In this document: positions 30,529 to 63,146 of the stretch, piece after piece
Layout of the letters: each line of letters begins with the position of its first letter
How positions within the stretch are numbered: position 1 is the stretch's first letter
NCBI GenBank assembly: GCA_049975205.1
Contig: JBNGDL010000007.1
Location: forward strand, 36,952 to 100,951
Direction: 5' to 3'
Source of the DNA: Anaerolineae bacterium
GTDB lineage: Bacteria > Chloroflexota > Anaerolineae > B4-G1 > SLSP01
DNA: 64,000 nucleotides
Made by a program: the position numbers and the translations under genes
Notes under the pieces: generated by a model
What the model was told of the DNA's origin: nothing
The model's database searches: none
The model's input: only the letters and a program-made list of their open reading frames with translations

Positions 30529-30553
30529 GGACAGACGCAACGGGAGAAATCGG

Positions 30554-31189: not shown

Positions 31190-31209
31190 GCTGTGCTGAG
31201 GAGGAGGCG

Positions 31210-33969: not shown

Positions 33970-34011
33970 TGTGATCCTCAGGGAGTCTTCGGGACGGTAA
34001 GCCTGAAGGAT

Positions 34012-34040
34012 TTGTGCTTTGCTGAGATCGATACTATCGT
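34012..34040 (+). promoter_or_regulatory. Candidate internal promoter upstream of the second pseudokinase-PP2C gene
   Basis: TTGTGC (34012-34017), 17 bp, TATCGT (34035-34040), in a locally GC-poorer 170-bp gap. Confidence 0.25.
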
Positions 34041-34138
34041 AGGTGGGTAACATGGTCTGCAAGGGGGATCCTTGGAACAGGTAACGGGCAACGGGTTCTT
34101 CGTTTCGCTTTCTCAGCGCAACCTTACATATCCCTTTT

Positions 34139-35887: not shown

Positions 35888-35930
35888 CCGCCGGTGCTGA
35901 ATCAAGACAGAAGACATGGAGGCAGTTGAG

Positions 35931-37913
35931 ATGCGCATACGGCGTGTGCTGTCGACCTTCATCTGTCTCGCATCCCTGCTGTCGGCGATGCCGACGGCAG
36001 CACAGGAGGGCGTGCCCGAGCCTCCGGTCGTGGACATCCTTGGGACGCCGGATACCCGCTCCCAGCCCCCAAACGCTCATCTCTATGTGTCCGTCGTAGA
36101 CCGGCTCACAGGCCGTGCGTTTCTCGATCTGGAGCCAGCGAATTTCGCGGCCCAGGTCTCTGAGGTAGACGTTGAGACCGCAGTCGAGATAGACACGACC
36201 GGACTGGCTGTGGTCATGGTGATCGACCGTGGCGGGATAGCCCAGCGGGGTGATCCCAGGATCGGTCGGAGCGTTGACCTTGCATCCGCGTTGCTCGAGA
36301 TGCTGACGGTGGACGGGACTGCCACGGCGGATATGGTGGCGCTCATCGGCATCCGCGGCGAGGAACAAGGCGGACTCACGCCAGTCATCAACTTCACAGA
36401 CTACGATCCGAACGTAATCAGCAACGCCTTTGATGGGCTGCGTACAGAGGTTGTGAACGAAACGACGCCCCTTTATGACGGGCTCGACAGAGCGATAGCG
36501 TGGATCACCGATAACCCCGATCCTCAGATACGCGAGAAACTGGTACATCGACGGCGGATCATCCTGGTCTTCTCCGACGGGATAGATCGGGACTTCAGTG
36601 ACGAGTCCCACGAGACTCTGATCGTCAATCAAGCTGCGGAGAACGATATCCTCATCTATGCTGTCCAAATGAGTGACCGGGGTCGGACGGGTGATTCCAT
36701 AAGCCTAAGTGCCATGGCCACACAGACTCAGGGAGCGCTGTTCGTGCACAGTCCGGAGAGTCACGAGGAGGTCCTCGCCCGTCTGCAGGATATCACGACC
36801 CAACGGGAGGCCTACCGCCTGACCTTTCCTCTGATCCGGCCTCAAGGCCTGTACCAGGTGGAGATTCAGGTGCTTGATACGCCAGGTGGGTCAGCTTCGG
36901 ATGCTGAGAGCATCACGTCTCACCTGGAGAGGCCAGGTATCGCGTGGGTCGCACCTCCGGAGCTTCAGATTGTCGTGCCCTATTCCGAGACAGCGCTGGG
37001 GTTCCTGCCCACATCGATCCCGTTGAGCGTCCAGATGAGTTTCAAGGATGGCGCTTCGCGAGAGCCGGAGCAGGTCTCGTACTTCGCGAACGAGCAGCGC
37101 ATTGGTCTTACAAGTGCCGGTCCGGACTACGCTTTTGAATGGGACGTCGCGGATCTCGAGACGCCGGCGACCGAGCCGGTCACGCGAACCTTCACCCTGA
37201 TTGCTCGCGCGACCGATCCCTATCTCGAGGAGCCTATTGCGACGGAGCCGCTGGACATCCAGATTACGTGGGAGCAGAAAGAGGAGACGCTGAAGACGGT
37301 CACAGAGGATGTCGCCAGCAGCGTGGCGCTGAACTGGTGGGTCCTCCCACTCTTCGGCGTGCTGGCAGTGGGTATTGTCGTGCTCGCCGTGCTGCTGATT
37401 CGGACCCGAGGTCAGGTGGCGAAGCAGGTCGTGAAGGGTACCACGGCTGTCGTGAGAGGGGTCACACAACGGTTAGGCGCTGGCGGTGGGTTGCCCGCTG
37501 CACGGGGGAAGCTTGTCGTGACGCGAGGACCTCGCACGGGGACTGAGTTCCGTCTGGCAACGAGCTTGGTGCGGGTCGGGCGAGATCCTGAGTACAGCGA
37601 CTTCGCACTGCACGACCAATACGTGTCCAACCCTCACTTCTCCGTGATCGAGGAGGGAGGGCAGTTCTATATCCGGGATGAGGAGAGTACCAACCAGACC
37701 CGTCTTAATGGCGCAGTCGTCCCTGCGAATCAGCGGATCGTTCTGCCCCCGGATGCCGTCATCGATGCAGGCCAGACGCGTCTCCAGTTTCGTCGGTTGG
37801 GTGGCGAGACGCGGCTCATCAGCGCTCGCGCACAGAAGACGGAGCGAGGCAGCTCGGGGCAAGACGAGGCCAATGCGCCAACGCAGCGAGCAGGCCCAGG
37901 TTTCCGCCCGTAG
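35931..37913 (+). CDS. Secreted vWA-like domain - TM - cytoplasmic FHA domain protein
   Basis: ATG at 35931 has GGAGG 8 nt upstream; the ORF opens at 35916. Signal peptide MRIRRVLSTFICLASLLSAMPTAAQ. vWA-like strands VVMVIDRGGIA (MIDAS DxSxS not conserved) and IILVFSDGIDRDF. TM is WWVLPLFGVLAVGIVVLAVLLI. FHA is LVRVGRDPEYSDFALHDQYVSNPHFSV...ESTNQTRLNG. Confidence 0.75.
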   Translation: MRIRRVLSTFICLASLLSAMPTAAQEGVPEPPVVDILGTPDTRSQPPNAHLYVSVVDRLTGRAFLDLEPANFAAQVSEVDVETAVEIDTTGLAVVMVIDRGGIAQRGDPRIGRSVDLASALLEMLTVDGTATADMVALIGIRGEEQGGLTPVINFTDYDPNVISNAFDGLRTEVVNETTPLYDGLDRAIAWITDNPDPQIREKLVHRRRIILVFSDGIDRDFSDESHETLIVNQAAENDILIYAVQMSDRGRTGDSISLSAMATQTQGALFVHSPESHEEVLARLQDITTQREAYRLTFPLIRPQGLYQVEIQVLDTPGGSASDAESITSHLERPGIAWVAPPELQIVVPYSETALGFLPTSIPLSVQMSFKDGASREPEQVSYFANEQRIGLTSAGPDYAFEWDVADLETPATEPVTRTFTLIARATDPYLEEPIATEPLDIQITWEQKEETLKTVTEDVASSVALNWWVLPLFGVLAVGIVVLAVLLIRTRGQVAKQVVKGTTAVVRGVTQRLGAGGGLPAARGKLVVTRGPRTGTEFRLATSLVRVGRDPEYSDFALHDQYVSNPHFSVIEEGGQFYIRDEESTNQTRLNGAVVPANQRIVLPPDAVIDAGQTRLQFRRLGGETRLISARAQKTERGSSGQDEANAPTQRAGPGFRP

Positions 37914-38006
37914 TAGCGAGGATGCCGTAGCCCTGTCGGCGTTGACAAGGATCGCGCCATTTAGGTGTGAAAGGGATCTGCGGTTGAATTCAGAGGAGTT
38001 GATTCT

Positions 38007-38939
38007 ATGCCAATCTGTCCGAATTGTGGAGCACAACAGCCGGAGGGAGCTACCTTCTGCGACGAGTGTGGCGCGGCTTTAAGACGCCCCGCGGTCTCCT
38101 ATCCTGCGCCCTCGTCCAAAGACCAGGGTCGAACCGTTGTAGGCTCCAGCATGGCCGCAGGGCCGCGCCTCTGCCCGGTCTGTGGTGCGCGTAACGCTTC
38201 ACAAGACCCTTTCTGCACGAACTGCGGGGCCTCGCTCAGCGAGGAGCCCGCTCCCGCCCAGCGCGGACCCTGTGCGATGGATGGGGTGACGGTCATAGCA
38301 CCCGCTGGGGCAGGGGGGCGACCGGAGAAGCTCGGTCCTACTCCCGGTGCGGGTTCTGTTCAGGGTGGTTTGGTCTGTGGTCAGTGCGGTGCGTTGCTGG
38401 AGCCCGACAGTGCCTTCTGTGATATGTGTGGGGCGCCGGTGAGTCGTGTGTCGCCGCCCTCCGGTGACGAGACCGCGCTGTCGTCCCCTCCCGCCTCGGA
38501 TCAGGCTCCAGTCTACGAACCGACCGTCGCATCACAGGAGCGGGGATGGCAGGCGTCGGCGGGAGGAGCGCTGCAAGCGCCAACGCCCTCCGACGACGCG
38601 CTACGCCCGAAGCCTCAGGGTGCGCTGGTGGTGCGCGGGAGCAACGTCACGCTCGATCTTGTGTCAGGGACGCTGGTATGGGTGATCGGTCGCGAGGATC
38701 CACTGAGTGGTATCTTCCCGGACATCGATCTTACAGACCACGGGGGGGACGAGGGTGGTGTCTCCCGCAAGCACGCACGGATTCAGGTACAGGGCCAGCG
38801 GTTCTACGTCGAGGACCTGAATAGCACGAACCATACTTACCTGAACCGCGAACTGCTGACGCCGGGATACACCTATCCGCTCCGGGATGGCGATGAGTTG
38901 TGCTTTGGACGCGTGAAAGTGATCTTCAGGTCTTCCTAG
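38007..38939 (+). CDS. Triple zinc-ribbon - FHA domain protein
   Basis: 310 aa, GAGGAG RBS. CPNCGAQQPEGATFCDECG, CPVCGARNASQDPFCTNCG and CGQCGALLEPDSAFCDMCG. C-terminal FHA is VWVIGRED...GGVSRKHARIQV...DLNSTNHTYLN. Confidence 0.8.
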   Translation: MPICPNCGAQQPEGATFCDECGAALRRPAVSYPAPSSKDQGRTVVGSSMAAGPRLCPVCGARNASQDPFCTNCGASLSEEPAPAQRGPCAMDGVTVIAPAGAGGRPEKLGPTPGAGSVQGGLVCGQCGALLEPDSAFCDMCGAPVSRVSPPSGDETALSSPPASDQAPVYEPTVASQERGWQASAGGALQAPTPSDDALRPKPQGALVVRGSNVTLDLVSGTLVWVIGREDPLSGIFPDIDLTDHGGDEGGVSRKHARIQVQGQRFYVEDLNSTNHTYLNRELLTPGYTYPLRDGDELCFGRVKVIFRSS

Positions 38940-40028
38940 ATGTTCAGACTCAGGTCGATGGAGAGCTACGTAGCACACGTCTCCCGTGAGATGGATGACG
39001 CCCTTCGCCGGGCGCGGTCCGGCGGCGCAGGGGGCGCGAGAGCCCGCTTTGACATAGCCACAGACCGGATGATCATCTTCGGAGACCTTCATCGTGGCGC
39101 CCGGAATGCAGCGGATGACTTCCGCCAGAATGAACGTGCGTACTGCGCTGCCCTTGCGTACTACTTCAGAATGGGACATCGCCTCGTCGTGCTAGGTGAT
39201 GCTGAGGAGCTGTGGGAGGAGTCGCCTGCGACCATTCTCAGCGAGTACCGGCACACGCTGGAGCTAGAAGCTCAGTTCCACCGCGACGGCCGTTACTGCC
39301 GCGTGTGGGGCAACCACGACGATGAATGGCAGTATGAGCCACGCGTCCGTCTGCTGCTCGATCCAATCTATGGCGGTCGGCCACTGAATATCTACGAGGC
39401 GCTGTTCGTAGATGTCGAGGACGACGGCAACCGGTTAGGCTCCCTGTTTCTGGTCCACGGACACCAGGGCGATACGAAGAGCAGCCAGTGGTCCTGGCTC
39501 TCGCGGCGCGTCATCCGGTATCTTTGGCGCCCCTTCCAGCGCTTCACTGGCGCCTCCGTGAACACGCCAGCAACGAGCTGGGATCTCCGGGATAGGCTGA
39601 ACCAAGCGATGTATGCCTGGTCTGTGAAGGAGAAGAGTTTACTGCTGGTTGCTTCCCATACGCACGAGCCAGTTTTCAAGTCCCGTTCGCACGAGGCACA
39701 GATCAAAGAGCACCTTGCGGCGCTTGAGGCTGAGGCTGGAAAGGTTCCAAGTCGTGAACAGCGAGAGGAGATGGCCCGCCTGCAGGCCCGGCTAGAGTGG
39801 GTCAGGATGAAGACACAGGAGTCCGGGGGGCAAAGAAACGGCATCCACTTCCAGCTGCCGTGCTACTTCAACCCGGGTTGTTGCTGCTATGACGATGGCG
39901 ATATCACGGGGATCGAACTCGCAGAGGGTCAGATTCGCCTGATCCGTTGGCCCGATGAAGACAATGAGCCCTGTCCTCATATCCTCGCTGCGGATTCCCT
40001 GAGGGAGGTCTTTAGGGACTGCTCCTGA
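38940..40028 (+). CDS. Calcineurin-like metallophosphoesterase (possible PPP-type protein phosphatase)
   Basis: 362 aa. Motifs IIFGDLHRG, VVLGDAEELWE, WGNHDDEW, LVHGHQGD, ASHTHEP. The ATG directly abuts the TAG of the upstream FHA gene (TAGATG). Confidence 0.7.
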   Translation: MFRLRSMESYVAHVSREMDDALRRARSGGAGGARARFDIATDRMIIFGDLHRGARNAADDFRQNERAYCAALAYYFRMGHRLVVLGDAEELWEESPATILSEYRHTLELEAQFHRDGRYCRVWGNHDDEWQYEPRVRLLLDPIYGGRPLNIYEALFVDVEDDGNRLGSLFLVHGHQGDTKSSQWSWLSRRVIRYLWRPFQRFTGASVNTPATSWDLRDRLNQAMYAWSVKEKSLLLVASHTHEPVFKSRSHEAQIKEHLAALEAEAGKVPSREQREEMARLQARLEWVRMKTQESGGQRNGIHFQLPCYFNPGCCCYDDGDITGIELAEGQIRLIRWPDEDNEPCPHILAADSLREVFRDCS

Positions 40029-46457: not shown

Positions 46458-48299
46458 TCATTCCTCTGGGGCCACAGCCGTGCCCAACGGCTTCATCACG
46501 ATGTAGTGGAACCCGTTCATAGGCACGTGTTCCACGAGCCCATAGTGCTCGCCGATCGCGGCTAAGACCGGTGGCGGATAGAACTGAGCGCGCATGATGA
46601 CCAAGCCGAAGGCCTTCTCACGAATCATGCTCTCCAGGGCTGTGGTATCTAGGAGGCCGTTGTTGTAGAGATTGAGCAGCTGGGTGGGGTTTGTGATCAC
46701 GGGCTTCCCCGCCAGCATCGTGAAGGCAGCCTCCTCACTGAGCACCGGGAGGTCGGTTGACCTGACGTGCTCCATGATTCTGGCACCGCCTTCGTAGTCG
46801 CGGGGCAACATCAGGTGGCCAACTTGCGTGTACCCCACCGCGTCGTAATAGGCATAGTCTGCGTAGGCTGACTGTCCAGCCACACCGAGAGCGCGGGCGA
46901 TAGGCCCCCAGATCGGCCCTGCGGTCGGCAGATGGAGCATGCGCGTGGTCTGAACCAGGATTAGCAGGGGCACGAGAACAAAGACTGCTCCGTGCCACCG
47001 AGGGCGAGTCGTAACGACCCAAGCGCTCAGCTTGCCAAGAGCAAAGCCTGAGAGGATGATCGCTGCGGCAACGGAGGTCACCCAGTATGCCTCTCCCGCA
47101 CCCCATTTGCCGGACATCGCTCCGGTCCCCAGCGCGGCGAGGAACCAGAGGGTGTAGATGGAGATCTGGCCAACATAGACCTCGTAGATGACCACCGCTG
47201 CGGCTAGCAGGACGAACACGGTGTGAATCTTCAGCCACGATCGCGTGAGTCCGATTAGTTGAGGATAAAAATAGGTATTTACGTTGGCAGAGATCGTATT
47301 GATCCACCAGTACCCGTCGGTAAGCTCGTTGATCAAGAGAAAGACTGTGGCGAATGCCAAGCCAAAGGCTGCGACCGTGACAACCGCTCGGCGTGGCTTC
47401 AGCAAGAATAGGTAGGCGAAGACGGCAGCTGCCGTGAAGACTGCAAGCTGCTTGGAATACCCTGCTAAGAAGAGACAAGACAGACCGAGGAGCAGGTATC
47501 CTTTTCTTTGAGGTGTGCTACTTTGCGCGCGCCCGACAGCGCCGGCGATGAAATAGACGCAGAGGACCTCGAAGAAGACCATGGTCAGGTGCTGGCGACA
47601 CAGGGGGCCAACGTGGTAGACGAAGTTGGAGGCCAGGTAGGAAAGACCGGAGGCGACAGGAATGAAGATGCCCCCGGTCCTGCGTCGCACCGTCATGCCA
47701 ATCATCACAGCTGTAAGGAGCGTGATGGTGAAGGCAAGCACCCGACCTGAGAGCAGCGTCTCTCCAAAGATCGGGAAGACCGCGATGTTCATCAAGTGGA
47801 AGACCGGGGGATAGTTGGAAGCGTAGAAGGGATAGGTGTCTGGATCTTGGTAGGGCCATCTCCCCTGACTGTGCAGGACTGCGTCGTACAGCTCAAAGCT
47901 CTCGCCCTGATCGTAGTCGTAGGGCCATCGGAACAGATCCACGGCGTAGGTTACGTAGACGAGGAGATATGCCAGGAGTGCCAGGATCGCCAGTCCTCGG
48001 AGTAGCCAGCCCGACCAGCGATAGGGTGAGGGCACAGGATTCACCGCCTCGAGCAGGTCAGGGTCGATGCGGTCATTTGGCTCCCCTTCGATAGCGGCAG
48101 GCCGGTCGCCCAGGCGCAACAGAGGAATGCCGGCGGCTGCGATGACCACTCCAACAAGCAGCAGTGCCAGCTCCAGAGGTCCGATGCCGCTCCATGCGCC
48201 GAGGCCGAGTCGACCGACCAGCAGCAGCGCGGCAACCGCGCCGACGCCCAGAGCAATGAGGAGCCAACCTAGCTGTCGCTTTGTGATCATCGCGGGCAT
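46458..48299 (-). CDS. Polytopic membrane protein, GT-C-type (ArnT/PMT-like) glycosyltransferase candidate
   Basis: 613 aa. At least 10 hydrophobic spans, an acidic first loop (WPYDYDQGESFELYD) and a C-terminal soluble domain. The family is assigned by architecture only. Confidence 0.5.
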   Translation of the reverse strand: MPAMITKRQLGWLLIALGVGAVAALLLVGRLGLGAWSGIGPLELALLLVGVVIAAAGIPLLRLGDRPAAIEGEPNDRIDPDLLEAVNPVPSPYRWSGWLLRGLAILALLAYLLVYVTYAVDLFRWPYDYDQGESFELYDAVLHSQGRWPYQDPDTYPFYASNYPPVFHLMNIAVFPIFGETLLSGRVLAFTITLLTAVMIGMTVRRRTGGIFIPVASGLSYLASNFVYHVGPLCRQHLTMVFFEVLCVYFIAGAVGRAQSSTPQRKGYLLLGLSCLFLAGYSKQLAVFTAAAVFAYLFLLKPRRAVVTVAAFGLAFATVFLLINELTDGYWWINTISANVNTYFYPQLIGLTRSWLKIHTVFVLLAAAVVIYEVYVGQISIYTLWFLAALGTGAMSGKWGAGEAYWVTSVAAAIILSGFALGKLSAWVVTTRPRWHGAVFVLVPLLILVQTTRMLHLPTAGPIWGPIARALGVAGQSAYADYAYYDAVGYTQVGHLMLPRDYEGGARIMEHVRSTDLPVLSEEAAFTMLAGKPVITNPTQLLNLYNNGLLDTTALESMIREKAFGLVIMRAQFYPPPVLAAIGEHYGLVEHVPMNGFHYIVMKPLGTAVAPEE

Positions 48300-48356
48300 T
48301 ATAGCCGGTCATCTCAGACCCGCAAGGCGCCGATCAGACTAGTCAAGAATCTCAGT

Positions 48357-48373
48357 ATTGACAATCGGTCAAT
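48357..48373. promoter_or_regulatory. Perfect inverted repeat ATTGAC-N5-GTCAAT overlapping the -35 (candidate PadR operator)
   Basis: ATTGACAATCGGTCAAT at 48357-48373. A third ATTGAC lies at 48398-48403 and a GACTAGTC palindrome at 48337-48344. Confidence 0.35.
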
Positions 48374-48386
48374 AGTACGATATGAT
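48358..48386 (+). promoter_or_regulatory. sigma70-type promoter of the padR / NifX-like / MinD-ferredoxin operon
   Basis: TTGACA (48358-48363), 17 bp, TATGAT (48381-48386). Very short leader to the RBS GAGGAGG (48391-48397). Confidence 0.55.
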
Positions 48387-48404
48387 TATAGAGGAGGATT
48401 GACT

Positions 48405-48815
48405 ATGCCGTGGGGAGGGAAACGCAGAGGTCGAGGCTACGGCCCCAAGCGCCGTTGGGGGAGGCGGATCCGTATCGTTGAGCCAATGATGCTGTTATTG
48501 CTGGCTGAGGAGCCGACGCATGGTTATCGCCTTGTCGAGCGGCTGGCGGAGCGGTACGGTATCGAGAATCTTCCCCCCCAGACCGTCTATCGCATTCTGC
48601 AGGAGATGGAAGAACGGGGCTGGGTGTCTTCAGACTGGGATCTCGAGGGGGCTCAGGGCCCTCCGAAGAAGGTATATCGGCTCGAGCCTGCGGGCAGGGC
48701 CGCGCTAGATGCATGGTCTGGTGAGATTGAGGAGTTGCGTAGCATGCTGGGGAGTTTCCTCAGCGATCACGCGCATATTAGACTGAACACAACAGAGGAG
48801 GCGGAGACGAGATGA
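48405..48815 (+). CDS. PadR family transcriptional regulator
   Basis: ATG at 48405 lies 7 nt after GAGGAGG; the track ORF opens at TTG 48399. LLLLAEEPTHGYRLVERL, TVYRILQEMEERGWVSS, KKVYRLEPAGR. Confidence 0.85.
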   Translation: MPWGGKRRGRGYGPKRRWGRRIRIVEPMMLLLLAEEPTHGYRLVERLAERYGIENLPPQTVYRILQEMEERGWVSSDWDLEGAQGPPKKVYRLEPAGRAALDAWSGEIEELRSMLGSFLSDHAHIRLNTTEEAETR

Positions 48816-49189
48816 AGATAGCAATTGGTGCATACGGTCCGGGCGAGCAGGCGATGATCGACCCCCGATTTGGACGTTGTGCGTATTTTGTGTTCGTGGA
48901 CACTGATAGCGGCGCTGTGGACTCACAGCCGAACGACGGTCTGGCAAGCGCCCACGGGGCGGGCGTCCAAGCGGCCCAGGTCGTTATCCAGTCGGGCGCT
49001 GATGCTGTGATTGCCGCGCGGGTCGGGCCTAATGCGTTTCAGGTGTTGCGCTCAGCGGGTGTGAGAGTCTACCAGGCGCAAAGCATGTCGGTTGAGGAAG
49101 CGGTGGCGGCGCTGAAGGCGAACCGGCTTGTTGAGGTCGGTCAACCAAGCGGACCCGGACACTTTGGGGGAGGAGGGAGGCGACGCTAG
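48812..49189 (+). CDS. NifB/NifX-family (MTH1175/orange-protein-like) domain protein
   Basis: 125 aa. MKIAIGAYG...DPRFGRCAYFVFVD is typical of the dinitrogenase FeMo-cofactor-binding-like domain (PF02579-type). ATGA overlap with padR. Confidence 0.75.
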   Translation: MKIAIGAYGPGEQAMIDPRFGRCAYFVFVDTDSGAVDSQPNDGLASAHGAGVQAAQVVIQSGADAVIAARVGPNAFQVLRSAGVRVYQAQSMSVEEAVAALKANRLVEVGQPSGPGHFGGGGRRR

Positions 49190-49191
49190 GA

Positions 49192-49554
49192 ATGCCACTG
49201 ACAGATGGACAGGAAGAAACTTCCAGGGCAGAGAGGCGCTCGACGGAGATTGTTGAGGTTAGAGGAGCTCCAATCGTGCCACTGGATGAACGGGAGGCCA
49301 CTCTGGTTAGAGAACAGCACACCCGAGCAGCTGATATCGCTCGCCAGGTGCTGGGTTTCCTATCCAACGTCGCCCAGCTAGCGCTGAAGATCGTGGAGGA
49401 TCGATCCGTGACTCCGGTGGAATCTCCGCAACAGTCGGCAGCCGTCCAGCCCGAGCGTACCCCCGAGCGCCCACTCGGTGTGCGATGTGGAGGCCCAGGG
49501 CAAGGGGGGCGGCAACAGCGACGTCGAAGGCGTGGAGCTAAGCAAGATCAATAG
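49192..49554 (+). CDS. Hypothetical protein with Arg/Gly-rich C-terminal tail (coding status uncertain)
   Basis: 120-aa ORF filling the gap between two NifX-like genes and starting 3 nt after the previous stop. No recognised motif. DUF5320-type proteins occupy this position in similar loci, but the sequence does not clearly match. Confidence 0.35.
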   Translation: MPLTDGQEETSRAERRSTEIVEVRGAPIVPLDEREATLVREQHTRAADIARQVLGFLSNVAQLALKIVEDRSVTPVESPQQSAAVQPERTPERPLGVRCGGPGQGGRQQRRRRRGAKQDQ

Positions 49555-49574
49555 CAGTCAAAGGAGAAAGCTTG

Positions 49575-49967
49575 ATGCGAATCGCAGTCTCTTCAGAAGA
49601 TAATCGCGGCCTTGAGGCTCAGGTCGCCCAGCATTTTGGTCGATGTCCTTACTTCACCTTTGTGGATGTGGAGGATGGCGCCATTCAAGAGGTGCGTGTC
49701 CTGGACAATCCTCATTACCACGATCATCGTCCGGGTGCGGTCCCGGATTTCGTGAAGGCGTACGATGCCACGATGATCATTGCGGGCGGTATGGGACGGC
49801 GAGCTGTGGCGCTGTTTCAGCAGGCCGGCATAGAGGCTTATACCGGTGCTGACAGCACCGTGCGGCGCTCCTTAGAGTCGGCCATGGGCGGCGAGCTAGA
49901 GGACGCCACACCTTGTCCCGGCCGAGGGGGCGACGCGTGTGATGAGCACGGGAGCCACAGTCACTGA
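49575..49967 (+). CDS. NifB/NifX-family (orange-protein-like) domain protein
   Basis: ATG at 49575 lies 8 nt after AAGGAG. MRIAVSSEDNRGLEAQVAQHFGRCPYFTFVD ... IIAGGMGRRAVALFQQAGIEAY. Confidence 0.8.
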   Translation: MRIAVSSEDNRGLEAQVAQHFGRCPYFTFVDVEDGAIQEVRVLDNPHYHDHRPGAVPDFVKAYDATMIIAGGMGRRAVALFQQAGIEAYTGADSTVRRSLESAMGGELEDATPCPGRGGDACDEHGSHSH

Positions 49968-50091
49968 TGATGCAAACTACGAGGGCTGTCAAGGGGCCTA
50001 TTGTCCTGGCCCTAAATCGCGCTTCTACCCGGCTCAGGGGACGGGTTGCGGGTGACTGCCTATGCGGCGGTGGGTGCAGGGAGGCAGCGGC

Positions 50092-50985
50092 ATGCGCATA
50101 GCTATTGCGAGTGGCAAGGGTGGCACCGGCAAGACGACGATTGCGGTGAGCCTCTTTCTCACCCTGGCGGAGCAAACGGTGCACGGCTCGGATGCAGTGT
50201 GCCAGCTGTTGGACTGTGACGTCGAGGAACCAAACGCGGCGATCTTCGCGAAGCCCGTCATTGAGGGCTCTGAGGAGGTCGGGATACGCCTGCCGGAGGT
50301 GGATTTCGACCTCTGTACCTACTGCGGGCGCTGCGCTGAGGTCTGCGCTTACCACGCCATCGCGGTCTTCGGCGATCAGCTCTTGATCTTCCCGCAGCTA
50401 TGTCACGGGTGCGGCAGCTGCACGCACAACTGCCCCGAGGGCGCCATTCACGAGGTCTTGAGTCCGACAGGGACGCTCTCGTGGGGGACGATTCGGGAGC
50501 AGCCGGCACTTCGCTTCGGACAGGGCGAGATGATAGTCGGGGAGGCAATGGCAACACCCATTATTCGACAACTCAAGCGCAAGATGCGGAGCGTTTCCCG
50601 CGAGTCGGTCACCATCCTTGACGCTCCTCCTGGCAACGCCTGCCCGGTGGTTGAGACGATGCGTGGTGCGGATTTCGCGCTGCTTGTTACAGAACCTACG
50701 CCTTTTGGGCTTCATGATCTGCGCATCGCCGTTGACGTGGCGAGCGAGGAGTTGGGTGTCCCCGTGGGCGTGGTCATCAACCGGGATGGAGTGGGGGACG
50801 GCAGCGTTGACGAGTTTTGCGCAGAACGTGGGGTTCCAATCCTACTTCGCATTCCTCTCGATCGCCGCATAGCTGAGACCTATGCGGATGGTATCCCTCT
50901 GGTGGAAGCCCTTCCTGAGTATCGATCAGAGTTTGCCGATCTCTATGCAAGCGTGGTTGCGTTGATCGAGGGGAGGGACCGATGA
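50092..50985 (+). CDS. MinD/ParA-superfamily P-loop ATPase with inserted 2x[4Fe-4S] ferredoxin domain (COG1149-type)
   Basis: ATG at 50092 after AGGGAGG. Deviant Walker A IAIASGKGGTGKTT. Cluster motifs CTYCGRCAEVCAYHAI and CHGCGSCTHNCPEGAI. Confidence 0.85.
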   Translation: MRIAIASGKGGTGKTTIAVSLFLTLAEQTVHGSDAVCQLLDCDVEEPNAAIFAKPVIEGSEEVGIRLPEVDFDLCTYCGRCAEVCAYHAIAVFGDQLLIFPQLCHGCGSCTHNCPEGAIHEVLSPTGTLSWGTIREQPALRFGQGEMIVGEAMATPIIRQLKRKMRSVSRESVTILDAPPGNACPVVETMRGADFALLVTEPTPFGLHDLRIAVDVASEELGVPVGVVINRDGVGDGSVDEFCAERGVPILLRIPLDRRIAETYADGIPLVEALPEYRSEFADLYASVVALIEGRDR

Positions 50986-51884
50986 CGGACACGATGAGAC
51001 AACTCGTGATCTTAAGCGGAAAAGGGGGGACGGGAAAGACGACGATTGCTGCGGCGCTTGCGCACCTGGCGTCCCAGGAGATCTCGTTGAGCCTCGCCGA
51101 TGCCGACGTTGATGCCGCAAATCTGGAGCTTCTCCTGGCGGCGGAGCGTCTTGCGTCTCACGACTTCATGGGAGGAGACATCGCTGAAATCAATGCCGAT
51201 CTATGTATTGGCTGCGGCGCTTGTTTTGATGCCTGTCGATTTGATGCGATCAGCTTCGTGGAAGATGAGGGCGTCTACGCCGTTGATGACACCGCTTGTG
51301 AGGGGTGTGCTGCGTGCTTCTATCGATGTCCTGTATCAGCGATCACGATGACCACTGAACTGGGTGGGTACTGGTACGAGTCGGAGACTCCATATGGACC
51401 GCTGTATCATGCACATCTGCTCGCTGGGGCAGAGAACTCGGGTAAGCTGGTCACTATGGTAAAGCAGCAAGCGAGGCTCCGAGCACTGGATGACAGCCGC
51501 CGTCTCGTTCTCGTCGATGGACCGCCTGGCATTGGCTGCCCGGTCATCTCCGCGCTCTCCGGTGCGGATGTGGCACTGATGGTCGTTGAGCCGACGCTCT
51601 CCGGCGTTCATGATCTGAGCCGAGTCGTGGGAGTGGCTGACCACTTTGACGTGCCCTCGTTTGTGGCACTCAACAAGGTAGATCTGAGCCCAAGACGCGC
51701 TGAAGAGATCGAGGCGTACTGTGAAGACCAGGGTGTCCCCATCGTAGCCCGCATTCCATACGACACGGTGATGACCGAGTCTATGGTTCAAGGGGTGCCG
51801 GTGACCGCGTATACGGATGGGCCGGTTTCGCAGGCCTTGGCACAAGGCTGGTCCATCATTCGAGACAAGTTGGGGCTGGTCTAG
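50982..51884 (+). CDS. Second MinD/ParA-type ATPase with inserted ferredoxin domain (COG1149-type)
   Basis: 300 aa. VILSGKGGTGKTT, CIGCGACFDACRFDAI, CEGCAACFYRCPVSAI. ATGA overlap with the upstream paralog. Confidence 0.85.
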   Translation: MTDTMRQLVILSGKGGTGKTTIAAALAHLASQEISLSLADADVDAANLELLLAAERLASHDFMGGDIAEINADLCIGCGACFDACRFDAISFVEDEGVYAVDDTACEGCAACFYRCPVSAITMTTELGGYWYESETPYGPLYHAHLLAGAENSGKLVTMVKQQARLRALDDSRRLVLVDGPPGIGCPVISALSGADVALMVVEPTLSGVHDLSRVVGVADHFDVPSFVALNKVDLSPRRAEEIEAYCEDQGVPIVARIPYDTVMTESMVQGVPVTAYTDGPVSQALAQGWSIIRDKLGLV

Positions 51885-51968
51885 GCAGCGCTTCGTGGTG
51901 ATTCGGCACTGTGTCGACTGATCGGGGCTGATCGCGGCTGGTCGCTAGGACGGATGCATCATGTGGTG

Positions 51969-51996
51969 GTGACAGGAAGCCAGACTTTGGTATAAT
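51969..51996 (+). promoter_or_regulatory. Promoter for the DUF59 / FmdB gene pair
   Basis: GTGACA (51969-51974), 16 bp, TGG-TATAAT (extended -10, TATAAT at 51991-51996). RBS GGAGGT and the ATG at 52012 follow closely. Confidence 0.5.
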
Positions 51997-52011
51997 ACCG
52001 GTGGAGGTCAT

Positions 52012-52317
52012 ATGGACACCGATACGACCATACGAGAGCGGATATTGATGCGGTTGGTCGACGTTATCGACCCTGAGACTGGTGTCGATGTGCTGCGGAT
52101 GCGGTTGGTCGAGGATCTTTCGGTTGACGAGAAGGGGGGCGTCGTCACCTACCGTTTTCGACCGTCCTCGCCGCTGTGTCCGTTGGCGCACAGCCTTGCT
52201 TTGGACATCAAGCGGGCTATAGCCTCGGTCGAGGGTGTGAAGGAGCAGCAGATAGAGGTTGCTGGCTATGTGAGAGCCGAGGAGCTCACCGAGATGATCA
52301 ATCGTGTGAGCGTCTAG
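52012..52317 (+). CDS. DUF59/MIP18-family Fe-S assembly protein (SufT/PaaD-like)
   Basis: 101 aa. VDVIDPETGVDVLRMRLVEDL and a conserved Cys (SSPLCPLA). Has its own promoter-like element upstream. Confidence 0.75.
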   Translation: MDTDTTIRERILMRLVDVIDPETGVDVLRMRLVEDLSVDEKGGVVTYRFRPSSPLCPLAHSLALDIKRAIASVEGVKEQQIEVAGYVRAEELTEMINRVSV

Positions 52318-52365
52318 CGGACTTATCACAGTCTACGTGTAGGCGACGTCTTCGGAGAGTGCTAG

Positions 52366-52605
52366 ATGGCGATTTACGAATACCAGTGTGAGGATTGTGG
52401 GGTGCAGTTCGAGGCGCGAAGAGCTATGAAGGATGCTGACGCGCCGATTGCCTGCCCTGAATGCGGTGGCTATCACGCGAAGCGTGGTCTGTCGCTGTTT
52501 TTCTCCGCACGGGGCGGTGGCGGCAACGGTGGACTGTCAGAGAGCGCCAGCAGCGGCTGTGCTTCCTGCAGCAGTCATTCGTGCTCAACCTGTGGAGGCC
52601 ACTGA
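52366..52605 (+). CDS. FmdB-family zinc-ribbon protein with Cys-rich C-terminal tail
   Basis: 79 aa. MAIYEYQCEDCGVQFE...IACPECGG is the canonical FmdB/CxxC_CxxC_SSSS ribbon. The tail is GCASCSSHSCSTCGGH. Confidence 0.8.
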   Translation: MAIYEYQCEDCGVQFEARRAMKDADAPIACPECGGYHAKRGLSLFFSARGGGGNGGLSESASSGCASCSSHSCSTCGGH

Positions 52606-52687
52606 ATCCAGCACCTATTTTCCCCGAAAAATGACATCGCCCTCACTTTATGTGAGGGCGGTGTGCTGTGACCGGTGAGTTCCTTAG

Positions 52688-53455
52688 TCAACTGAGGTTC
52701 AGGAACCGGCGGATCAAGCGGACAGTCTCATCTTTCCCCTGGTATCCGCTGCTATAGAAGCCGGTCAGGGGAATCAGTTCGCCTTGACGCGTCATCAGCT
52801 CCACACGATAGGTGTCACTATCGTCGTCGCTGCTCACACCCACGTGCGCCTCTACGATATCGTCCAGTAGATAGGTGCGCGTCTTTGCCCCCGTCAGCGT
52901 GGCTCGAGAGCGAGTCAGCGTGCCTTCGGCCAAACTGAAGGTCCAGCTTGTCTTGGTCGCGCGGACACCACCGATGGTCAACCCTAGGCCGACGAGGCCA
53001 ATGACCCCGCTTACGATCAGACCGGTGATGCCTCTGTCGCTGATCCTCAGGCTTGGCTGCGCCGCGTCGGCCAGAAAGGCGTTGATCTCCTCCGCCACTG
53101 AGGCGCGGTGCCGGTAGTTGGAGCCAGAGTGACTCGTCAGGGGAATGCGGCCCGAGGCGGTCTCTAGGACGACTTGGTAGAGGGCGTCGCCGTCGCTGTC
53201 TTCGTGCTCGTCTACGACAGCGGTCGTGAGCTCCGGAAGCGGCTGCCAGTTCATCCTGGCCCCAAGGAGGGATCGCTCTATGGCGCACCGGGGCGAGCCC
53301 GACGGCGTGCGCTCGCACACGAGGTCAGCGCTGCGTCCAAGGAAGTAGATCCAGAGAGGGGTGGACAGGATCAGGAGGATGCCCAGTATCAAGAGTAGGG
53401 GGCCACTCCGCGCGCGCAGCTTCAGGGTCTGATCGTCAAACTGCAGGATCTTCAT
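52688..53455 (-). CDS. Membrane protein with internally duplicated TM-plus-soluble module
   Basis: 255 aa. Two hydrophobic spans (LLLILGILLILSTPLWIYFL; GLIVSGVIGLVGLGLTIGGV). Each is followed by a module of about 90 aa ending ...YQVVLETASGRIPLT... / ...YRVELMTRQGELIPLT... Confidence 0.55.
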   Translation of the reverse strand: MKILQFDDQTLKLRARSGPLLLILGILLILSTPLWIYFLGRSADLVCERTPSGSPRCAIERSLLGARMNWQPLPELTTAVVDEHEDSDGDALYQVVLETASGRIPLTSHSGSNYRHRASVAEEINAFLADAAQPSLRISDRGITGLIVSGVIGLVGLGLTIGGVRATKTSWTFSLAEGTLTRSRATLTGAKTRTYLLDDIVEAHVGVSSDDDSDTYRVELMTRQGELIPLTGFYSSGYQGKDETVRLIRRFLNLS

Positions 53456-59491: not shown

Positions 59492-60610
59492 ATGAAACTC
59501 TCTTGCCTTCAGGAAAACCTCGCTAAGGGATTGAGCATTGCCGGTCGGGCCGTGCCGTCTCGCACGACGATGCCGATACTGGGGAACGTGCTCTTGGCCA
59601 CCGACCATGGTCAACTGAGGCTGGCTGCTACAAACATGGAGCTCAGCATTGTGCATTGGGTCGGTGCGCGGGTCGAGACTGAGGGCGAGATCACCGTACC
59701 AGCCCGGAATTTCATCGACTTGACGAATTCTCTGCCGCCCGATCAGGTGAACCTGACGCTGGATGAATCGACGCTGACCATGAAGCTGCAATGTGGCTCG
59801 GTCAACGCTAGTTTCCGGGGCATCTCGGCCGACGAGTTTCCATTGGTTCCGGAGGCCGATGATGATAACGGCGTCCACGTGGAGGCGGGTGATCTGAACA
59901 CGGGCTTGGTGCAGGTTACCTTTGCTGCCTCCACGGACGAAAGCCATCCGGTCTTGACCGGTGTCTTGGCGGAGTTCGAGGGCAACGCCTTGACGTTGGC
60001 GGCAGCCGACGGCTTCCGGCTGTCGATGCGCCAGATACCGTTGATCGAACCCGTGCCCGCGCCCTTAAGCGTCATCATCCCAGCTCGGGCGTTGGGTGAG
60101 CTGATGCGGATCATTGGTGGGCTGGAGGAGCCGATCAAGATCTCGACCACCCGGCCTCACAACCAGATCCTGTTCCAGATGCCCAGCACGGTGCTGAACT
60201 CGCAATTGATTGACGGGAGCTTCCCAGATGTACGCAGGATCATCCCTTCTTCCCACCGGACTCGCGTCGTCGTAGGGCGGGAGGAGATCCTTCAGGCCTG
60301 CAAGCGTGCTGCGATCTTTGCGCGCGACGTGGCCAACATCGTGACTCTGAGCATAGGCGATGACACGCTGACGGTTGCGGCGGACTCTTCTGAGTCGGGG
60401 CAGGGCTCGACGCGGTTGATGGCGGACATCGAAGGGGACAAGCTGGACATCGCGTTCAACGTGCGTTTCCTTATTGACGTCTTCTCGGCACTGGACACAC
60501 CGCAGGTCTCTCTAGAGCTGAACTCCCCGACAAATCCCGGCCTGATCCGGGCGGTGGGGGACGACGCCTTTACACACGTGGTGATGCCGATGCACCTTGG
60601 GCGACGCTAG
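59492..60610 (+). CDS. dnaN: DNA polymerase III beta sliding clamp
   Basis: 372 aa. MKLSCLQENLAKGLSIAGRAVPSRTTMPILGNVLL, with three-domain length and C-terminal ...VMPMHLGRR. RBS AGGAGG. Confidence 0.9.
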   Translation: MKLSCLQENLAKGLSIAGRAVPSRTTMPILGNVLLATDHGQLRLAATNMELSIVHWVGARVETEGEITVPARNFIDLTNSLPPDQVNLTLDESTLTMKLQCGSVNASFRGISADEFPLVPEADDDNGVHVEAGDLNTGLVQVTFAASTDESHPVLTGVLAEFEGNALTLAAADGFRLSMRQIPLIEPVPAPLSVIIPARALGELMRIIGGLEEPIKISTTRPHNQILFQMPSTVLNSQLIDGSFPDVRRIIPSSHRTRVVVGREEILQACKRAAIFARDVANIVTLSIGDDTLTVAADSSESGQGSTRLMADIEGDKLDIAFNVRFLIDVFSALDTPQVSLELNSPTNPGLIRAVGDDAFTHVVMPMHLGRR

Positions 60611-60650
60611 GCGGTCCAAGATGTAAGTTGTTTGGGTTCTGGATTCGTCT

Positions 60651-60693
60651 GGAGGCAGGATGCCGAGGTGAGTGTATCCTGTCTCCGTTTTTT
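60651..60693 (+). terminator. Rho-independent terminator after dnaN
   Basis: 11-bp stem GGAGGCAGGAT / ATCCTGTCTCC (one G-U pair), 14-nt loop, then GTTTTTTC (T-run at 60688-60693). Confidence 0.6.
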
Positions 60694-60734
60694 CTTATGG
60701 GGTTGGCCACGCGCCAAAGACGGTTTCTTAGTCT

Positions 60735-63146
60735 ATGAGAAGAGAAGTATATCTGACCAGAATCGAGGCGCTGTCCCCCGATCGATTGCGTCGGGAGTGT
60801 GATCCCTCGATATTCACGTTCGACTCGACGGATGACCTGCCTTACGAACCCGGCATCATCGGCCAGGATCGGGCCGTGGAGGCGGTTCGGTTTGGCCTTG
60901 ATATCAGCAGTCCGGGCTTCAACATCTTCGTGATGGGTCCGACGAGTTCGGGTCGCCGCTCGATCATCAAGCGGATGGTTGAGGAGAAGGCTGCACAAGA
61001 GCCGGTTCCGGATGACTGGCTCTACGTGACGCGTTTCGCGGAGCCGGGATCGCCTCGTGCTTTGCAGGTGCCCCCAGGTAGGGGGCGGAAGCTCCGTGCG
61101 GCTATGGAGCGGTTTAGCGCGACGTTGCCGGAGCGACTGCAGCAGGCTTTTGACACCGACCGCTACGCGGGGGCGCGGGAGGAGTTAGAGCAGCAGTACC
61201 GGGCATTGGAGCGAGAGGCCCTGGCCTCGGTAGACGCCGCTTGTCGCGAGCGCGATTGCGTGCTCGTTCGATCGCCCTCCGGCTTGTATATCGCTCCCGT
61301 GCGGGATGGCGACCTCCTGTCACCTGAGGCGATCAGCCAACTTGGTGTGGGAGAGCAGTCGAAGGTTCAGGAGAACCTTGAGTACCTAGACGATCTTCTG
61401 GACGACGCTATGCGGCACTTGCGAGATCACGAGCGGCAGATTCAGGGGGACATTGATCGCCTCGATCGAGAGGTCGCTGACCACACGATCCGTCCTCTCC
61501 TAGAAGAGCTTCGCGCAGCCTATGCCGACCAACCCGGAGTCCTCTCCTTCTTGGAGGAAGTGCGGGAGGATATCCTTGCGAATGTCTCGTTCTTTCGCTC
61601 CGGTGATACGGTCAGAACAGATACCGAGGGTGGCTCGCTTCTCGATGTCCCCATCAGCAAACGCTACCGGGTCAACCTGCTCGTGGACAACAGCGAACTG
61701 CAGGGTGCGCCGGTGGTCTTGGTCGAGAGACCGTCTGTACAGCGATTCTTGGGAGCCGTCGAATATGACATGCGGTACGGCATGAGCGTGACTGACCATA
61801 CGCTGATCCGGGCCGGCGCTCTGCACAAGGCAAACGGTGGTTATCTGATCGTGGATGCGACAGGCCTTGTTGAGGATTTTGACGCCTGGACTGGGCTCAA
61901 GCAGGCACTCTCCAAACAGTCCGTGCGGGTTGAGTCGCCCGATGGTCAGCGGCTGATCCGGACGGTGACACCCGTTCCGGAGCCGATACCGCTCGAGGTG
62001 AAGGTCATCCTTGTGGGGTTGCCTGAGGCCTTCTACCGGCTTTACAGATTCGACGAGGACTTCGCCAAGTTCTTCAAAGTCCAGGTGGAGTTCCATACCG
62101 AGGTGGACCGCACTCTAGAGACCGAACGGGCTTACGGGCGTTTCATTCGCATGCTCTGCCATCGCGAGGACCTGCTTCCGTTCACGCCAGAGGCCACGGC
62201 GCGGATCGTGGAGTTTGGCTCGCGGTGGGTCGAGCATCAGGATCGTCTCAGCTCGCAGTTCGGACACATCGCCGACCTCGTGCGGGAGGCAGACTACTGG
62301 GCTCGCCAAGGTGGTGAGCAAGCCGTGCACCGCGCCGATGTGCAGAGGGCGCTCAAGCAACAGCGGCGACGTGTCGGCCTGCTGGAAGAGCTTTCTCTGC
62401 GAGCGATCCTGGAAGACCGTCTTGTCCTCATGACCCAGGGCGGTGCCGTTGGGCAGGTCAACGCGCTGACCGTGGTCAGTTACGGGAGCAGTAGCTACGG
62501 TGTACCTAGCCGCATCACGGCCCAGGCCTACGTCGGTCGCGGCAACGTCGTGGACATCCATCGCGAGATCGACCTCGGTGGCCCGATTCACACGAAAGGT
62601 GTCTTGACGCTGACGGGCTATTTCGGCGGTCAATACGGCGTCTCCCGTCCCTTGTCCATGGAGGCGAGCCTGAGCTTCGAGCAAGTGTACGAGGATCTCG
62701 AGGGGGACAGCGCCTCGTGCGCCGAGCTGTACGCTCTGATCTCGGCGGTTTCGGAGCTGCCCCTCCGTCAGGATTTGGCGGTGACGGGCGCCGTTGATCA
62801 GTACGGCCACGTGATGGCGATCGGTGGCGTGAACGAGAAGATAGAGGGATTCTTTGAAGTCTGCCGCGCACGTGGGCTGACGGGAACCCAAGGCGTCATT
62901 ATCCCGACGTCCAACGTGAAGAATCTCATGTTGGAGGAGGATGTGATCGAGGCCGTGCGGAAGGGCGAATTCCATATCTATCCTGTCGACACGGTGGATG
63001 AGGGATTGACGCTGTTGACGGGGAAGCTCGCAGGCGTACCAAATGCGTCAGGCGAGTTTCCCCCAGATACCGTACACGGGCGCGTCGCTCGCCGGCTTGA
63101 AGCCTTTGCCAAGTCCGACGACGGCGACCGAGGACCGAACAGCTAG
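60735..63146 (+). CDS. LonC-like protease: degenerate AAA-like domain with Lon-insertion coiled coil plus Lon S16 protease domain
   Basis: 803 aa. The P-loop reads VMGPTSSGRRSII (no Lys). A long coiled-coil insertion spans about residues 140-260. Protease Ser-Lys dyad contexts are LEGDSASCAELYALISAVS and IGGVNEKIEGF. Confidence 0.75.
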   Translation: MRREVYLTRIEALSPDRLRRECDPSIFTFDSTDDLPYEPGIIGQDRAVEAVRFGLDISSPGFNIFVMGPTSSGRRSIIKRMVEEKAAQEPVPDDWLYVTRFAEPGSPRALQVPPGRGRKLRAAMERFSATLPERLQQAFDTDRYAGAREELEQQYRALEREALASVDAACRERDCVLVRSPSGLYIAPVRDGDLLSPEAISQLGVGEQSKVQENLEYLDDLLDDAMRHLRDHERQIQGDIDRLDREVADHTIRPLLEELRAAYADQPGVLSFLEEVREDILANVSFFRSGDTVRTDTEGGSLLDVPISKRYRVNLLVDNSELQGAPVVLVERPSVQRFLGAVEYDMRYGMSVTDHTLIRAGALHKANGGYLIVDATGLVEDFDAWTGLKQALSKQSVRVESPDGQRLIRTVTPVPEPIPLEVKVILVGLPEAFYRLYRFDEDFAKFFKVQVEFHTEVDRTLETERAYGRFIRMLCHREDLLPFTPEATARIVEFGSRWVEHQDRLSSQFGHIADLVREADYWARQGGEQAVHRADVQRALKQQRRRVGLLEELSLRAILEDRLVLMTQGGAVGQVNALTVVSYGSSSYGVPSRITAQAYVGRGNVVDIHREIDLGGPIHTKGVLTLTGYFGGQYGVSRPLSMEASLSFEQVYEDLEGDSASCAELYALISAVSELPLRQDLAVTGAVDQYGHVMAIGGVNEKIEGFFEVCRARGLTGTQGVIIPTSNVKNLMLEEDVIEAVRKGEFHIYPVDTVDEGLTLLTGKLAGVPNASGEFPPDTVHGRVARRLEAFAKSDDGDRGPNS

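Follow-up and report, generated by a model that had tools for sequence, protein, structure and literature searches.

A compact relative of the orange-protein cluster, with a putative PadR operator, in an uncultured Anaerolineae bacterium

Introduction

In Desulfovibrio vulgaris Hildenborough, the orange protein (ORP) cluster DVU2103-2109 has the order orp5-orp4-orp3 / orpR / orp7-orp8-orp9; Orp3 and Orp4 are MinD-like proteins with two [4Fe-4S] motifs each, Orp8 is an ORP homologue, and Orp9 (MrpORP) combines an Mrp/NBP35 ATPase with a Di-Nase domain and supplies the co-purifying Orp3-Orp4-Orp8 complex with Fe-S clusters (PMC6345978, PMC8359166). Expression of the orp genes requires sigma54, integration host factor (IHF) and the Fe-S PAS activator OrpR, and occurs only at low redox potential (PMC8359166). 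ORP homologues bind a [S2MoS2CuS2MoS2] cluster non-covalently, and the complex is 'putatively' involved in cell division, with MrpORP located at the pole (PMC6345978). ORP-type clusters are very widespread, yet they have been without an assigned function since the first description in Desulfovibrio. Here we analyse a relative of this system in a 64 kb stretch of DNA from an Anaerolineae bacterium (contig JBNGDL010000007.1; hereafter the window), where eight close-packed forward-strand open reading frames (ORFs) occupy 48.36-52.61 kb. Coordinates are positions in the window, and L-numbers denote related loci retrieved for comparison.

A first-pass annotation, made from the sequence of the window alone, had described these genes as a PadR-controlled locus resembling the D. 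vulgaris cluster. We conclude that the locus is, judging by its predicted proteins, a homologue of the ORP core that would act as an ORP system does, and a distinct architectural and regulatory variant of it, not a new kind of system. We also consider it probable, in a cautious sense of the word, that the locus is one unit: a sigma70-transcribed, PadR-autoregulated operon encoding an ORP-type module for handling metal-sulfur clusters in an uncultured member of the Anaerolineae.

Results

Gene content and order are conserved in Chloroflexota

The proposed gene order, namely padR, a NifX-like gene (nifX1), a gene of no recognised family, a second NifX-like gene (nifX2), two genes for MinD-ferredoxin ATPases (minD1 and minD2), a DUF59 gene (duf59) and an FmdB zinc-ribbon gene (fmdB), was confirmed for all eight ORFs (Table 1). 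Domains were predicted with Pfam and NCBIfam in seven of them (PF03551, PF02579 twice, CbiA/ParA plus Fer4 twice, PF01883 and PF09723), the exception being the 120-aa ORF between nifX1 and nifX2. Some of the genes are also joined at their ends: padR and nifX1 share an ATGA overlap at 48812-48815, as the first-pass annotation had noted, and minD1 and minD2 share another at 50982-50985, while nifX1 and the 120-aa gene are separated by 2 nt (gaps of 2-20 nt were counted toward translational coupling).

Searching one genome per GTDB species with MinD2, and assigning genes at ORF level, returned 31 loci, 29 of them from Chloroflexota species, and in these the genes are co-conserved. Directly upstream of minD2 stands minD1 in all 29 Chloroflexota loci; nifX1 is near the ATPase pair in 26 and nifX2 is present in 22, either before minD1 or after duf59, and duf59 lies downstream of minD2 in 25 of the 27 loci with sequence there, usually overlapping it or less than 40 bp away. 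The complete order, including the 120-aa gene and fmdB after duf59, is kept in L032-34, and L041/42 share even the upstream neighbours that the operon has in the window (a GT4 glycosyltransferase gene, two LCP genes and a 608-aa membrane protein). Further metagenome contigs repeat the co-conservation. A gene for a metallo-beta-lactamase-fold protein is found between nifX2 and minD1 in L041/42 (L041 7965-8819) and directly upstream of the cluster in L002 (1150-1977).

Proteins from metagenome-assembled genomes (MAGs) of Anaerolineae, Chloroflexi, Caldilineae and Thermoflexia are the nearest homologues of MinD2, PadR and NifX2, at 60-72% identity; for MinD2, which has more than 8000 homologues, the top ones are Anaerolineae MAG proteins of 60-70% identity. 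Metagenomes from crude oil, hot springs, sediment and soil contain nearly the same sequence, and what else lies in the window resembles the genome of a saccharolytic member of the Chloroflexi. The locus had been put forward as an ORP-like system in a different lineage, and the Anaerolineae are such a lineage; but given the anoxic habitats, the host fits the anaerobe-specific distribution of ORP systems and is no exception that would extend it.

Two NifX-like subfamilies

Both small proteins fall within the NifX/MTH1175 family to which they had been assigned, with PF02579 matches of 3.6e-23 (82.1 bits) for NifX1 and 7.2e-22 (78.0 bits) for NifX2 against a cutoff of 26.3, and by their best matches they are members of different subfamilies, ORP/MTH1175/TM1290 and TM1816/PH0822, respectively. 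In the PDB, NifX1 matches 1rdu (TM1290, 1.4e-20), 2wfb (D. gigas ORP, 1.1e-19, over residues 2-100) and 1eo1 (MTH1175, 2.9e-19). Its C-terminal tail is short, about 12 residues (GPGHFGGGGRRR), and its orthologues have no invariant cysteine, in keeping with ORP, whose cluster is described as bound non-covalently. NifX2 matches 1t3v/1o13 (TM1816, 1.3e-26) and also PH0822, as well as the MrpORP model NF041136 in its C-terminal Di-Nase part (positions 265-352, 2.4e-19). MTH1175, TM1290, TM1816 and PH0822 (COG1433, PF02579) represent the same two small NifX-like subfamilies, at E values of 1e-19 to 1e-26; their structures were solved by structural genomics and carry no assigned function. Together with the MinD-ferredoxin ATPases that are their presumed neighbours in archaea and Thermotoga, they count among the nearest known counterparts of the locus.

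Among NifX2 orthologues, His21, Cys25, His52, Cys115 and His126 are invariant (numbered on the 131-aa ORF that starts at 49572), with Cys25 in the motif HFGRCP and His52 in NPxxxxHxPGxVP. MrpORP's Di-Nase domain, which binds a [3Fe-4S] cluster, has CxHFGHCE, proline-rich and CDH motifs (PMC6345978), and the His/Cys set of NifX2 echoes them.

MinD-fold ATPases with an inserted ferredoxin domain

MinD1 and MinD2 are proteins of 290-300 aa, about 30-35% identical to each other, and each has a deviant Walker A motif, SGKGGTGKTT, that is invariant in orthologues. Each also has two CxxCxxCxxxC motifs, or eight ferredoxin cysteines, and the ferredoxin insertion proposed for both proteins stands up to alignment: all eight are invariant in 16 MinD2 orthologues, and in MinD1 six are invariant and the other two are found in 17-19 of 19 orthologues. 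A further invariant cysteine lies next to switch II in a PPGxxCP motif in both ATPases. In MinD1 this is C194 of PPGxxCPVVE (invariant in the 19 orthologues), accompanied by an invariant C253 and by the cysteine of DCDVEEPN in 18 of 19; in MinD2 it is the cysteine of PPGIGCPV.

In a PDB sequence search, MinD chains matched residues 5-78 and 165-287 and ferredoxins matched residues 59-128, with no chain covering the whole fusion. The AlphaFold model of MinD2 (predicted local distance difference test 89, predicted template-modelling score 0.82) carries the ferredoxin module on a beta-hairpin stalk at residues 55-136 and has a TM-score of 0.73 to Archaeoglobus fulgidus MinD. The ferredoxin module is thus a true insertion within the MinD fold, of the COG1149 type. 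Among the PDB neighbours of the model archaeal MinD ranks best, followed by FlhG and ParA/Soj; NifH and BchL come lower in the ranking. The MinD cell-division equivalogs TIGR01968/01969 gave 58-75 bits against cutoffs above 200, and neither minC nor minE is present at the locus.

With NifH/BchL, Mrp/Nbp35/ApbC and CooC, the ATPases share the dimer-forming P-loop fold with a deviant Walker A motif, a cysteine near switch II and, presumably, nucleotide-coupled Fe-S chemistry. They differ from those proteins in that their clusters would sit on the inserted 2x[4Fe-4S] domain, in place of a bridging cluster or besides one.

DUF59, FmdB and the second promoter

The DUF59 protein (FeS_assembly_P, of the SufT/Mrp-N-terminal type) matches PF01883 at 2e-14 (54.1 bits, cutoff 23.5) and TIGR02945 at 1.4e-10, the latter below its cutoff, and it does not reach the SufT and SUF_assoc equivalogs. 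Its Cys56, in PSSPLCP, is invariant (13/13). The first-pass annotation had treated duf59 as appended to the cluster, a view that its nearly constant place behind minD2, usually abutting that gene, does not bear out; on gene order, DUF59 is a core member of the cluster and not an add-on.

FmdB matches PF09723 at 1.8e-14 (53.9 bits, cutoff 34.4) and TIGR02605 at 1.5e-17 (63.4 bits, cutoff 31.3), and consists of a CxxC...CxxC zinc ribbon with a Gly- and Cys/Ser-rich tail. Among the close relatives examined, fmdB follows duf59 only in L032-34 and is otherwise not syntenic, and other relatives have a different small zinc-ribbon gene within the cluster.

A second promoter had also been proposed ahead of duf59. 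A site with 11 of 12 matches is indeed present, in the 127-bp gap between minD2 and duf59, but it is neither conserved nor obligatory: most relatives have duf59 directly against minD2 or overlapping it, so that the gap holding the site is missing and the site is an optional internal promoter at most.

A conserved operator-like palindrome at the padR promoter

PadR is of the short type, with a winged helix-turn-helix (HTH) domain (PF03551 at 1.5e-18, 66.9 bits, cutoff 27), and its best NCBIfam match is PhaQ (1.4e-13, below cutoff). With PadR, LmrR and PhaQ it has in common the PF03551 winged HTH, a short C-terminal helix and an operator-like inverted repeat overlapping its own promoter. It differs from them in a Gly/Arg-rich N-terminal extension (MPWGGKRRGRGYGPKRRWGRR) and in its putative targets, which would be genes for metallocluster proteins where those of PadR, LmrR and PhaQ are phenolic-acid or drug-stress genes. 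The extension is found in every PadR of the cluster family (window 48405-48470 and orthologues, for example MPGGRGRGGGRGRRR), and in composition it resembles the tails of NifX1, of DUF5320 proteins and of the Arg-tailed 120-aa protein.

The promoter scan, in which sites were counted by hexamer matches out of 12, is not significant by itself (3 found versus 1.5 expected). Comparison with related loci nevertheless upholds the consensus promoter that had been noted upstream of padR (11 of 12 matches), which is conserved base for base, with the -35 hexamer, the 17-nt spacer and the -10 hexamer kept in position and sequence. Overlapping the -35 hexamer is a palindrome, GTATTGACAATCGGTCAATAG, that includes a perfect TATTGAC-N5-GTCAATA and follows the consensus (C/G)TATT-N11-AATAG. 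It is the sole perfect match to this motif in the window. The palindrome holds this position, upstream of padR, in L003, 4, 5, 6, 9, 12, 14, 19, 29, 32-34, 35 and 41, and it is also found in the intergenic region between padR and the cluster in the divergent, Leptolinea-type loci L023-27, so that about 19 related loci have it upstream of padR overall; elsewhere in all the sequence scanned it was matched just twice, and loosely. No sigma54-type -24/-12 site was found near 48.3-48.4 kb, and window-wide counts of such sites are at chance.

PadR-family repressors typically use an inverted repeat of spaced short half-sites over their own -35. Since the palindrome lies across the -35 of padR in just this way, autorepression by PadR, with control of the whole operon in co-directional loci, is the best reading of the sequence pattern. 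The recurrence of the palindrome at the padR promoter is a new observation and, as comparative evidence, good evidence for PadR autoregulation; it strengthens the assignment of PadR as the putative regulator in the first-pass annotation. PadR homologues of at least 55% identity adjoin a NifX/MinD cluster in 4/4 contexts looked up, and one homologue at 45% identity is without a neighbouring cluster. In L010, PadR is replaced by a regulator with XRE-HTH and cupin domains.

The 120-aa protein and recurrent cationic tails

The gene between nifX1 and nifX2 encodes a protein whose N-terminus is acidic and variable and which has a conserved helix (VLxLLxxVxxLALxIVExR) and a tail of the form GGRxRRRxR. 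It has no match in Pfam or NCBIfam, and among 1.84 billion cluster representatives HMMER picked up no more than its own cluster and a single protein at 8e-4. Positional orthologues stand between nifX1 and nifX2 in L003, L032-34 and L041/42; these and the fmdB orthologues were found by ORF-level phmmer, both having been missed in a first tblastn pass. By this conservation the ORF is a real gene, of a narrow and fast-evolving family.

In L009 (3461-3937), L010 (4586-5038) and L017 (224-604), the space from padR, or another regulator, to the NifX genes holds a gene for a small 2x[4Fe-4S] ferredoxin that has a helix and a C-terminal tail rich in RRRRR. A profile comparison of the 120-aa protein with these gave a probability of 55% over 18 columns only, which makes kinship between them only suggestive. 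DUF5320 proteins (MPRGDRTGPMG...GRGAGYC... plus a coiled coil) lie inside related clusters (L009 3977-4330, L010 5050-5373, L029 4260-4643 and L001 4938-5510), as proteins in their own right or as fused C-terminal tails of NifX-like proteins. Many relatives carry DUF5320 proteins, DUF5320-like tails on NifX1 or NifX2, or small proteins that combine a DUF5320 N-terminus with a zinc ribbon. In the literature we found nothing relevant on DUF5320, nor on orange protein together with Anaerolineae.

Comparison with the D. vulgaris ORP cluster

Synteny with D. vulgaris was compared through published descriptions (PMC6345978, PMC8359166); these agree with what the first-pass annotation had said of the MinD-type ATPases, ORP and sigma54. 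The resemblance that it saw holds for the Orp3/4/8 core and for the Di-Nase carrier, and fails for MrpORP and for sigma54/OrpR, which are absent. Orp8 resembles NifX1, Orp3/Orp4 resemble MinD1/MinD2, and the C-terminus of Orp9 resembles NifX2, as a second Di-Nase-type domain with Cys/His motifs; both systems have clustered genes, an anaerobic host and no established function. In regulation, the window has a single sigma70 operon with PadR, whereas D. vulgaris has two divergent sigma54 operons with OrpR and IHF. In content, the window has a stand-alone DUF59 and no Mrp/NBP35 ATPase where D. vulgaris has MrpORP, and it has two proteins in addition, the Arg-tailed small protein and the FmdB zinc ribbon. 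Orp5 of D. vulgaris is a small [2Fe-2S] protein.

Discussion

A possible mechanism can be assembled from these homologies. A PadR dimer on (C/G)TATT-N11-AATAG, across the -35, would repress padR and the downstream genes until a signal releases it. The deviant Walker A lysines would join MinD1 and MinD2 in an ATP-dependent heterodimer, as in MinD, NifH and Mrp/Nbp35; in each ATPase the inserted ferredoxin domain would bear two [4Fe-4S] clusters, and the invariant PPGxxCP cysteines would face the interface. The pair would bind NifX1, as Orp3-Orp4-Orp8 associate in D. vulgaris. Coupled to ATP turnover and low-potential electrons, it would build, reduce or hand on an inorganic Fe-S or heterometal-sulfide cluster that NifX1 would hold non-covalently and NifX2 through His/Cys ligands. 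The stand-alone DUF59 may fill the role of MrpORP by loading the Fe-S clusters of the ATPases.

Several observations weigh against this interpretation. MrpORP was not found at the locus, where NF041136 is matched in its Di-Nase part only, with a best score of 69.9 bits (cutoff 450), and there is no Mrp gene at the locus; OrpR and sigma54 elements are likewise absent there, PadR being the predicted regulator. PadR has no cysteine. It is also present in only 15 of the 29 Chloroflexota loci (10 on the same strand, 5 divergent), about half, and is therefore an accessory regulator and not a defining part of the system. The structural neighbours of the ATPases are MinD and ParA first, NifH appearing only lower in the list. 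Expression support is minimal: a crude-oil metatranscriptome (run X6) yielded two short contigs over the start of minD1 (49988-50422), too little to show co-transcription, and these could be DNA carry-over. The matching DNA run X1 covers the complete locus at about 98% identity. Finally, no ORP-type system has an established biochemical function, and therefore we infer the heterodimer, cluster-handling and DUF59 steps from homology; complex formation, the identity of the metal, the PadR signal and the client are likewise inferred.

An alternative that we regard as unlikely is Fe-S storage and mobilisation of the type of IssA, the thioferrate storage protein of Pyrococcus furiosus, in whose clade MTH1175 has been placed (PMC5524996). 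Here the NifX-like and Gly/Arg-rich partners would hold a thioferrate-like polymer that the ATPases mobilise. NifX1 groups with MTH1175 and has the same PF02579/IPR003731 globular domain, and Gly-rich cationic tails recur in the cluster family: long GRGMG-rich NifX1 tails of 60-70 residues, with similarity to DUF5320, are found in L001, L002, L003 and L011, and the window's own NifX1 is rich in Gly/Arg too, as are the Arg-tailed protein and the N-terminus of PadR. However, IssA is a huge nanoparticle with a long tail, whereas the tail of the window's NifX1, known from its sequence, is only some 12 residues long; the window has no DUF5320 gene; IssA is not described together with MinD-ferredoxin ATPases at its loci (PMC5524996); and tail composition is weak evidence.

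Handling or detoxification of Mo/W-Cu thiometallates, with NifX1 binding a Mo/Cu-sulfide cluster as D. gigas ORP does, strikes us as improbable. The NifX1 match to D. gigas ORP and the non-covalent Mo-Cu cluster of ORP homologues are what it would build on, but there are no genes for Mo/W transport, molybdenum cofactor (Moco) biosynthesis or Cu in or beside the locus, and an Rfam scan of 47.5-53.5 kb found no riboswitch, of Moco or any other kind, its sole match being a chance microRNA (E 0.17). Even for the Mo-Cu cluster itself, physiological relevance is not settled.

To a role in cell division or positioning, in which the MinD-fold ATPases would be spatial regulators and their metal centres redox sensors, we would give an equally small chance. 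MinD, FlhG and ParA are the nearest neighbours of the ATPase fold in both structure and sequence, and the ORP complex, with its polar MrpORP, has been tied to division in Desulfovibrio, but that link is only putative, no MinC, MinE, ParB or division genes are present at the locus, and the constant partners of the ATPases (NifX-like proteins and DUF59) are of the Fe-S maturation type.

The Gly/Arg-rich segments also invite a bolder conjecture, to which we attach little credence. They recur at the N-terminus of PadR, at the C-terminus of NifX1 and in the Arg-tailed protein, and in relatives in DUF5320 or ferredoxin-plus-Arg-tail proteins, and they might all be one module that binds anionic thioferrate-like Fe-S or thiometallate. 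The operon would then be an ATP- and electron-driven store-and-release system for a metal-sulfur polymer, with a repressor that senses the polyanion through its own tail.

A nitrogenase-cofactor accessory function (of the NifX/NafY/NifB type) serving nif genes elsewhere in the genome is hardly credible, since PF02579, although a dinitrogenase FeMo-cofactor-binding domain, is abundant in non-diazotrophs, the best structural relatives here are the non-nif MTH1175, TM1290 and TM1816, and there are no nif genes in the window or in the related loci examined. A role in nitrogen fixation is rejected on the last of these grounds, in agreement with the first-pass annotation, nifHDK/ENB being absent among the large ORFs of the window.

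If the locus is an ORP-type operon under PadR control, as we favour, it is a compact, single-operon version of the ORP-type cluster with a simple regulatory switch, a 136-aa cysteine-free PadR and a putative 21-bp operator, and the signal of PadR, once found, could reveal what the system responds to and hence its purpose. The replacement of MrpORP by a stand-alone DUF59 amounts to a natural experiment, and the PPGxxCP cysteines and the His/Cys set of NifX2 are concrete targets for mutagenesis. The uncultured host limits the immediate value of the locus; the useful new points are the conserved operator-like site of PadR and the substitution of DUF59 for Mrp.

Gene starts, boundaries and surroundings of the locus

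Starts were refined with gene-caller products, orthologue alignments and Shine-Dalgarno spacing. The corrected start of padR is ATG 48405 (gene-caller product P0121, 136 aa), with GGAGG 8 nt upstream, and that of nifX2 is ATG 49575 (P0167, 130 aa). For minD1 the corrected start is ATG 50092, the methionine with which all orthologues begin, preceded by GGGAGG at 7 nt.

Table 1. Genes and candidate control elements of the locus, in window coordinates
Feature	Position	Strand	Description
Operator-like palindrome	48355-48375	+	GTATTGACAATCGGTCAATAG
Sigma70-type promoter	48358-48386	+	TTGACA-17-TATGAT; 11/12 matches
padR	48405-48815	+	PF03551; 136 aa
nifX1	48812-49189	+	PF02579 Nitro_FeMo-Co; 125 aa
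Small Arg-tailed gene	49192-49554	+	120 aa; no Pfam/NCBIfam family
nifX2	49575-49967	+	PF02579 Nitro_FeMo-Co; 130 aa
minD1	50092-50985	+	CbiA/ParA + Fer4; two Fer4 stretches
minD2	50982-51884	+	CbiA/ParA + Fer4; two Fer4 stretches
Possible internal promoter	51969-51996	+	GTGACA-16-TATAAT; 11/12 matches; minD2-duf59 gap
duf59	52012-52317	+	PF01883; 101 aa
fmdB	52366-52605	+	PF09723/TIGR02605 zinc ribbon; 79 aa
GC-rich hairpin	52638-52660	unassigned	T-run on - strand; between operon and convergent gene 52688-53455

The unit from padR to fmdB is bounded, since its neighbours on either side are unrelated to it: upstream lie two LCP-family genes, a GT4 glycosyltransferase gene and the gene for a 613-aa membrane protein, and downstream those for a 255-aa membrane-like protein, a ROK kinase and VanW. 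The GC-rich hairpin behind fmdB is likely the terminator of the convergent gene and may act bidirectionally. The 613-aa protein (46458-48299, - strand) is polytopic, has no Pfam match and is conserved beside two LCP genes and, in L041/42, beside the padR operon; it is probably a cell-envelope protein resembling glycosyltransferases.

Elsewhere in the window, GC skew is positive throughout, with no switch. Three successive large ORFs (616, 686 and 586 aa) at 3116-8974 have no Pfam match at 1e-6 and lie amid sugar-utilisation genes, and at 59492-63146 dnaN (DNA polymerase III beta) is followed by a gene for a LonB/LonC-like protease. A dense signalling cluster on the + strand at 22594-40028 encodes two PP2C phosphatases, a fusion of a Ser/Thr kinase to an M14 carboxypeptidase, several double-zinc-ribbon proteins, a 936-aa fusion of zinc ribbon, FHA, ABC ATPase and ABC-2 permease, a subtilase whose C-terminus bears zinc ribbons, and more FHA proteins.

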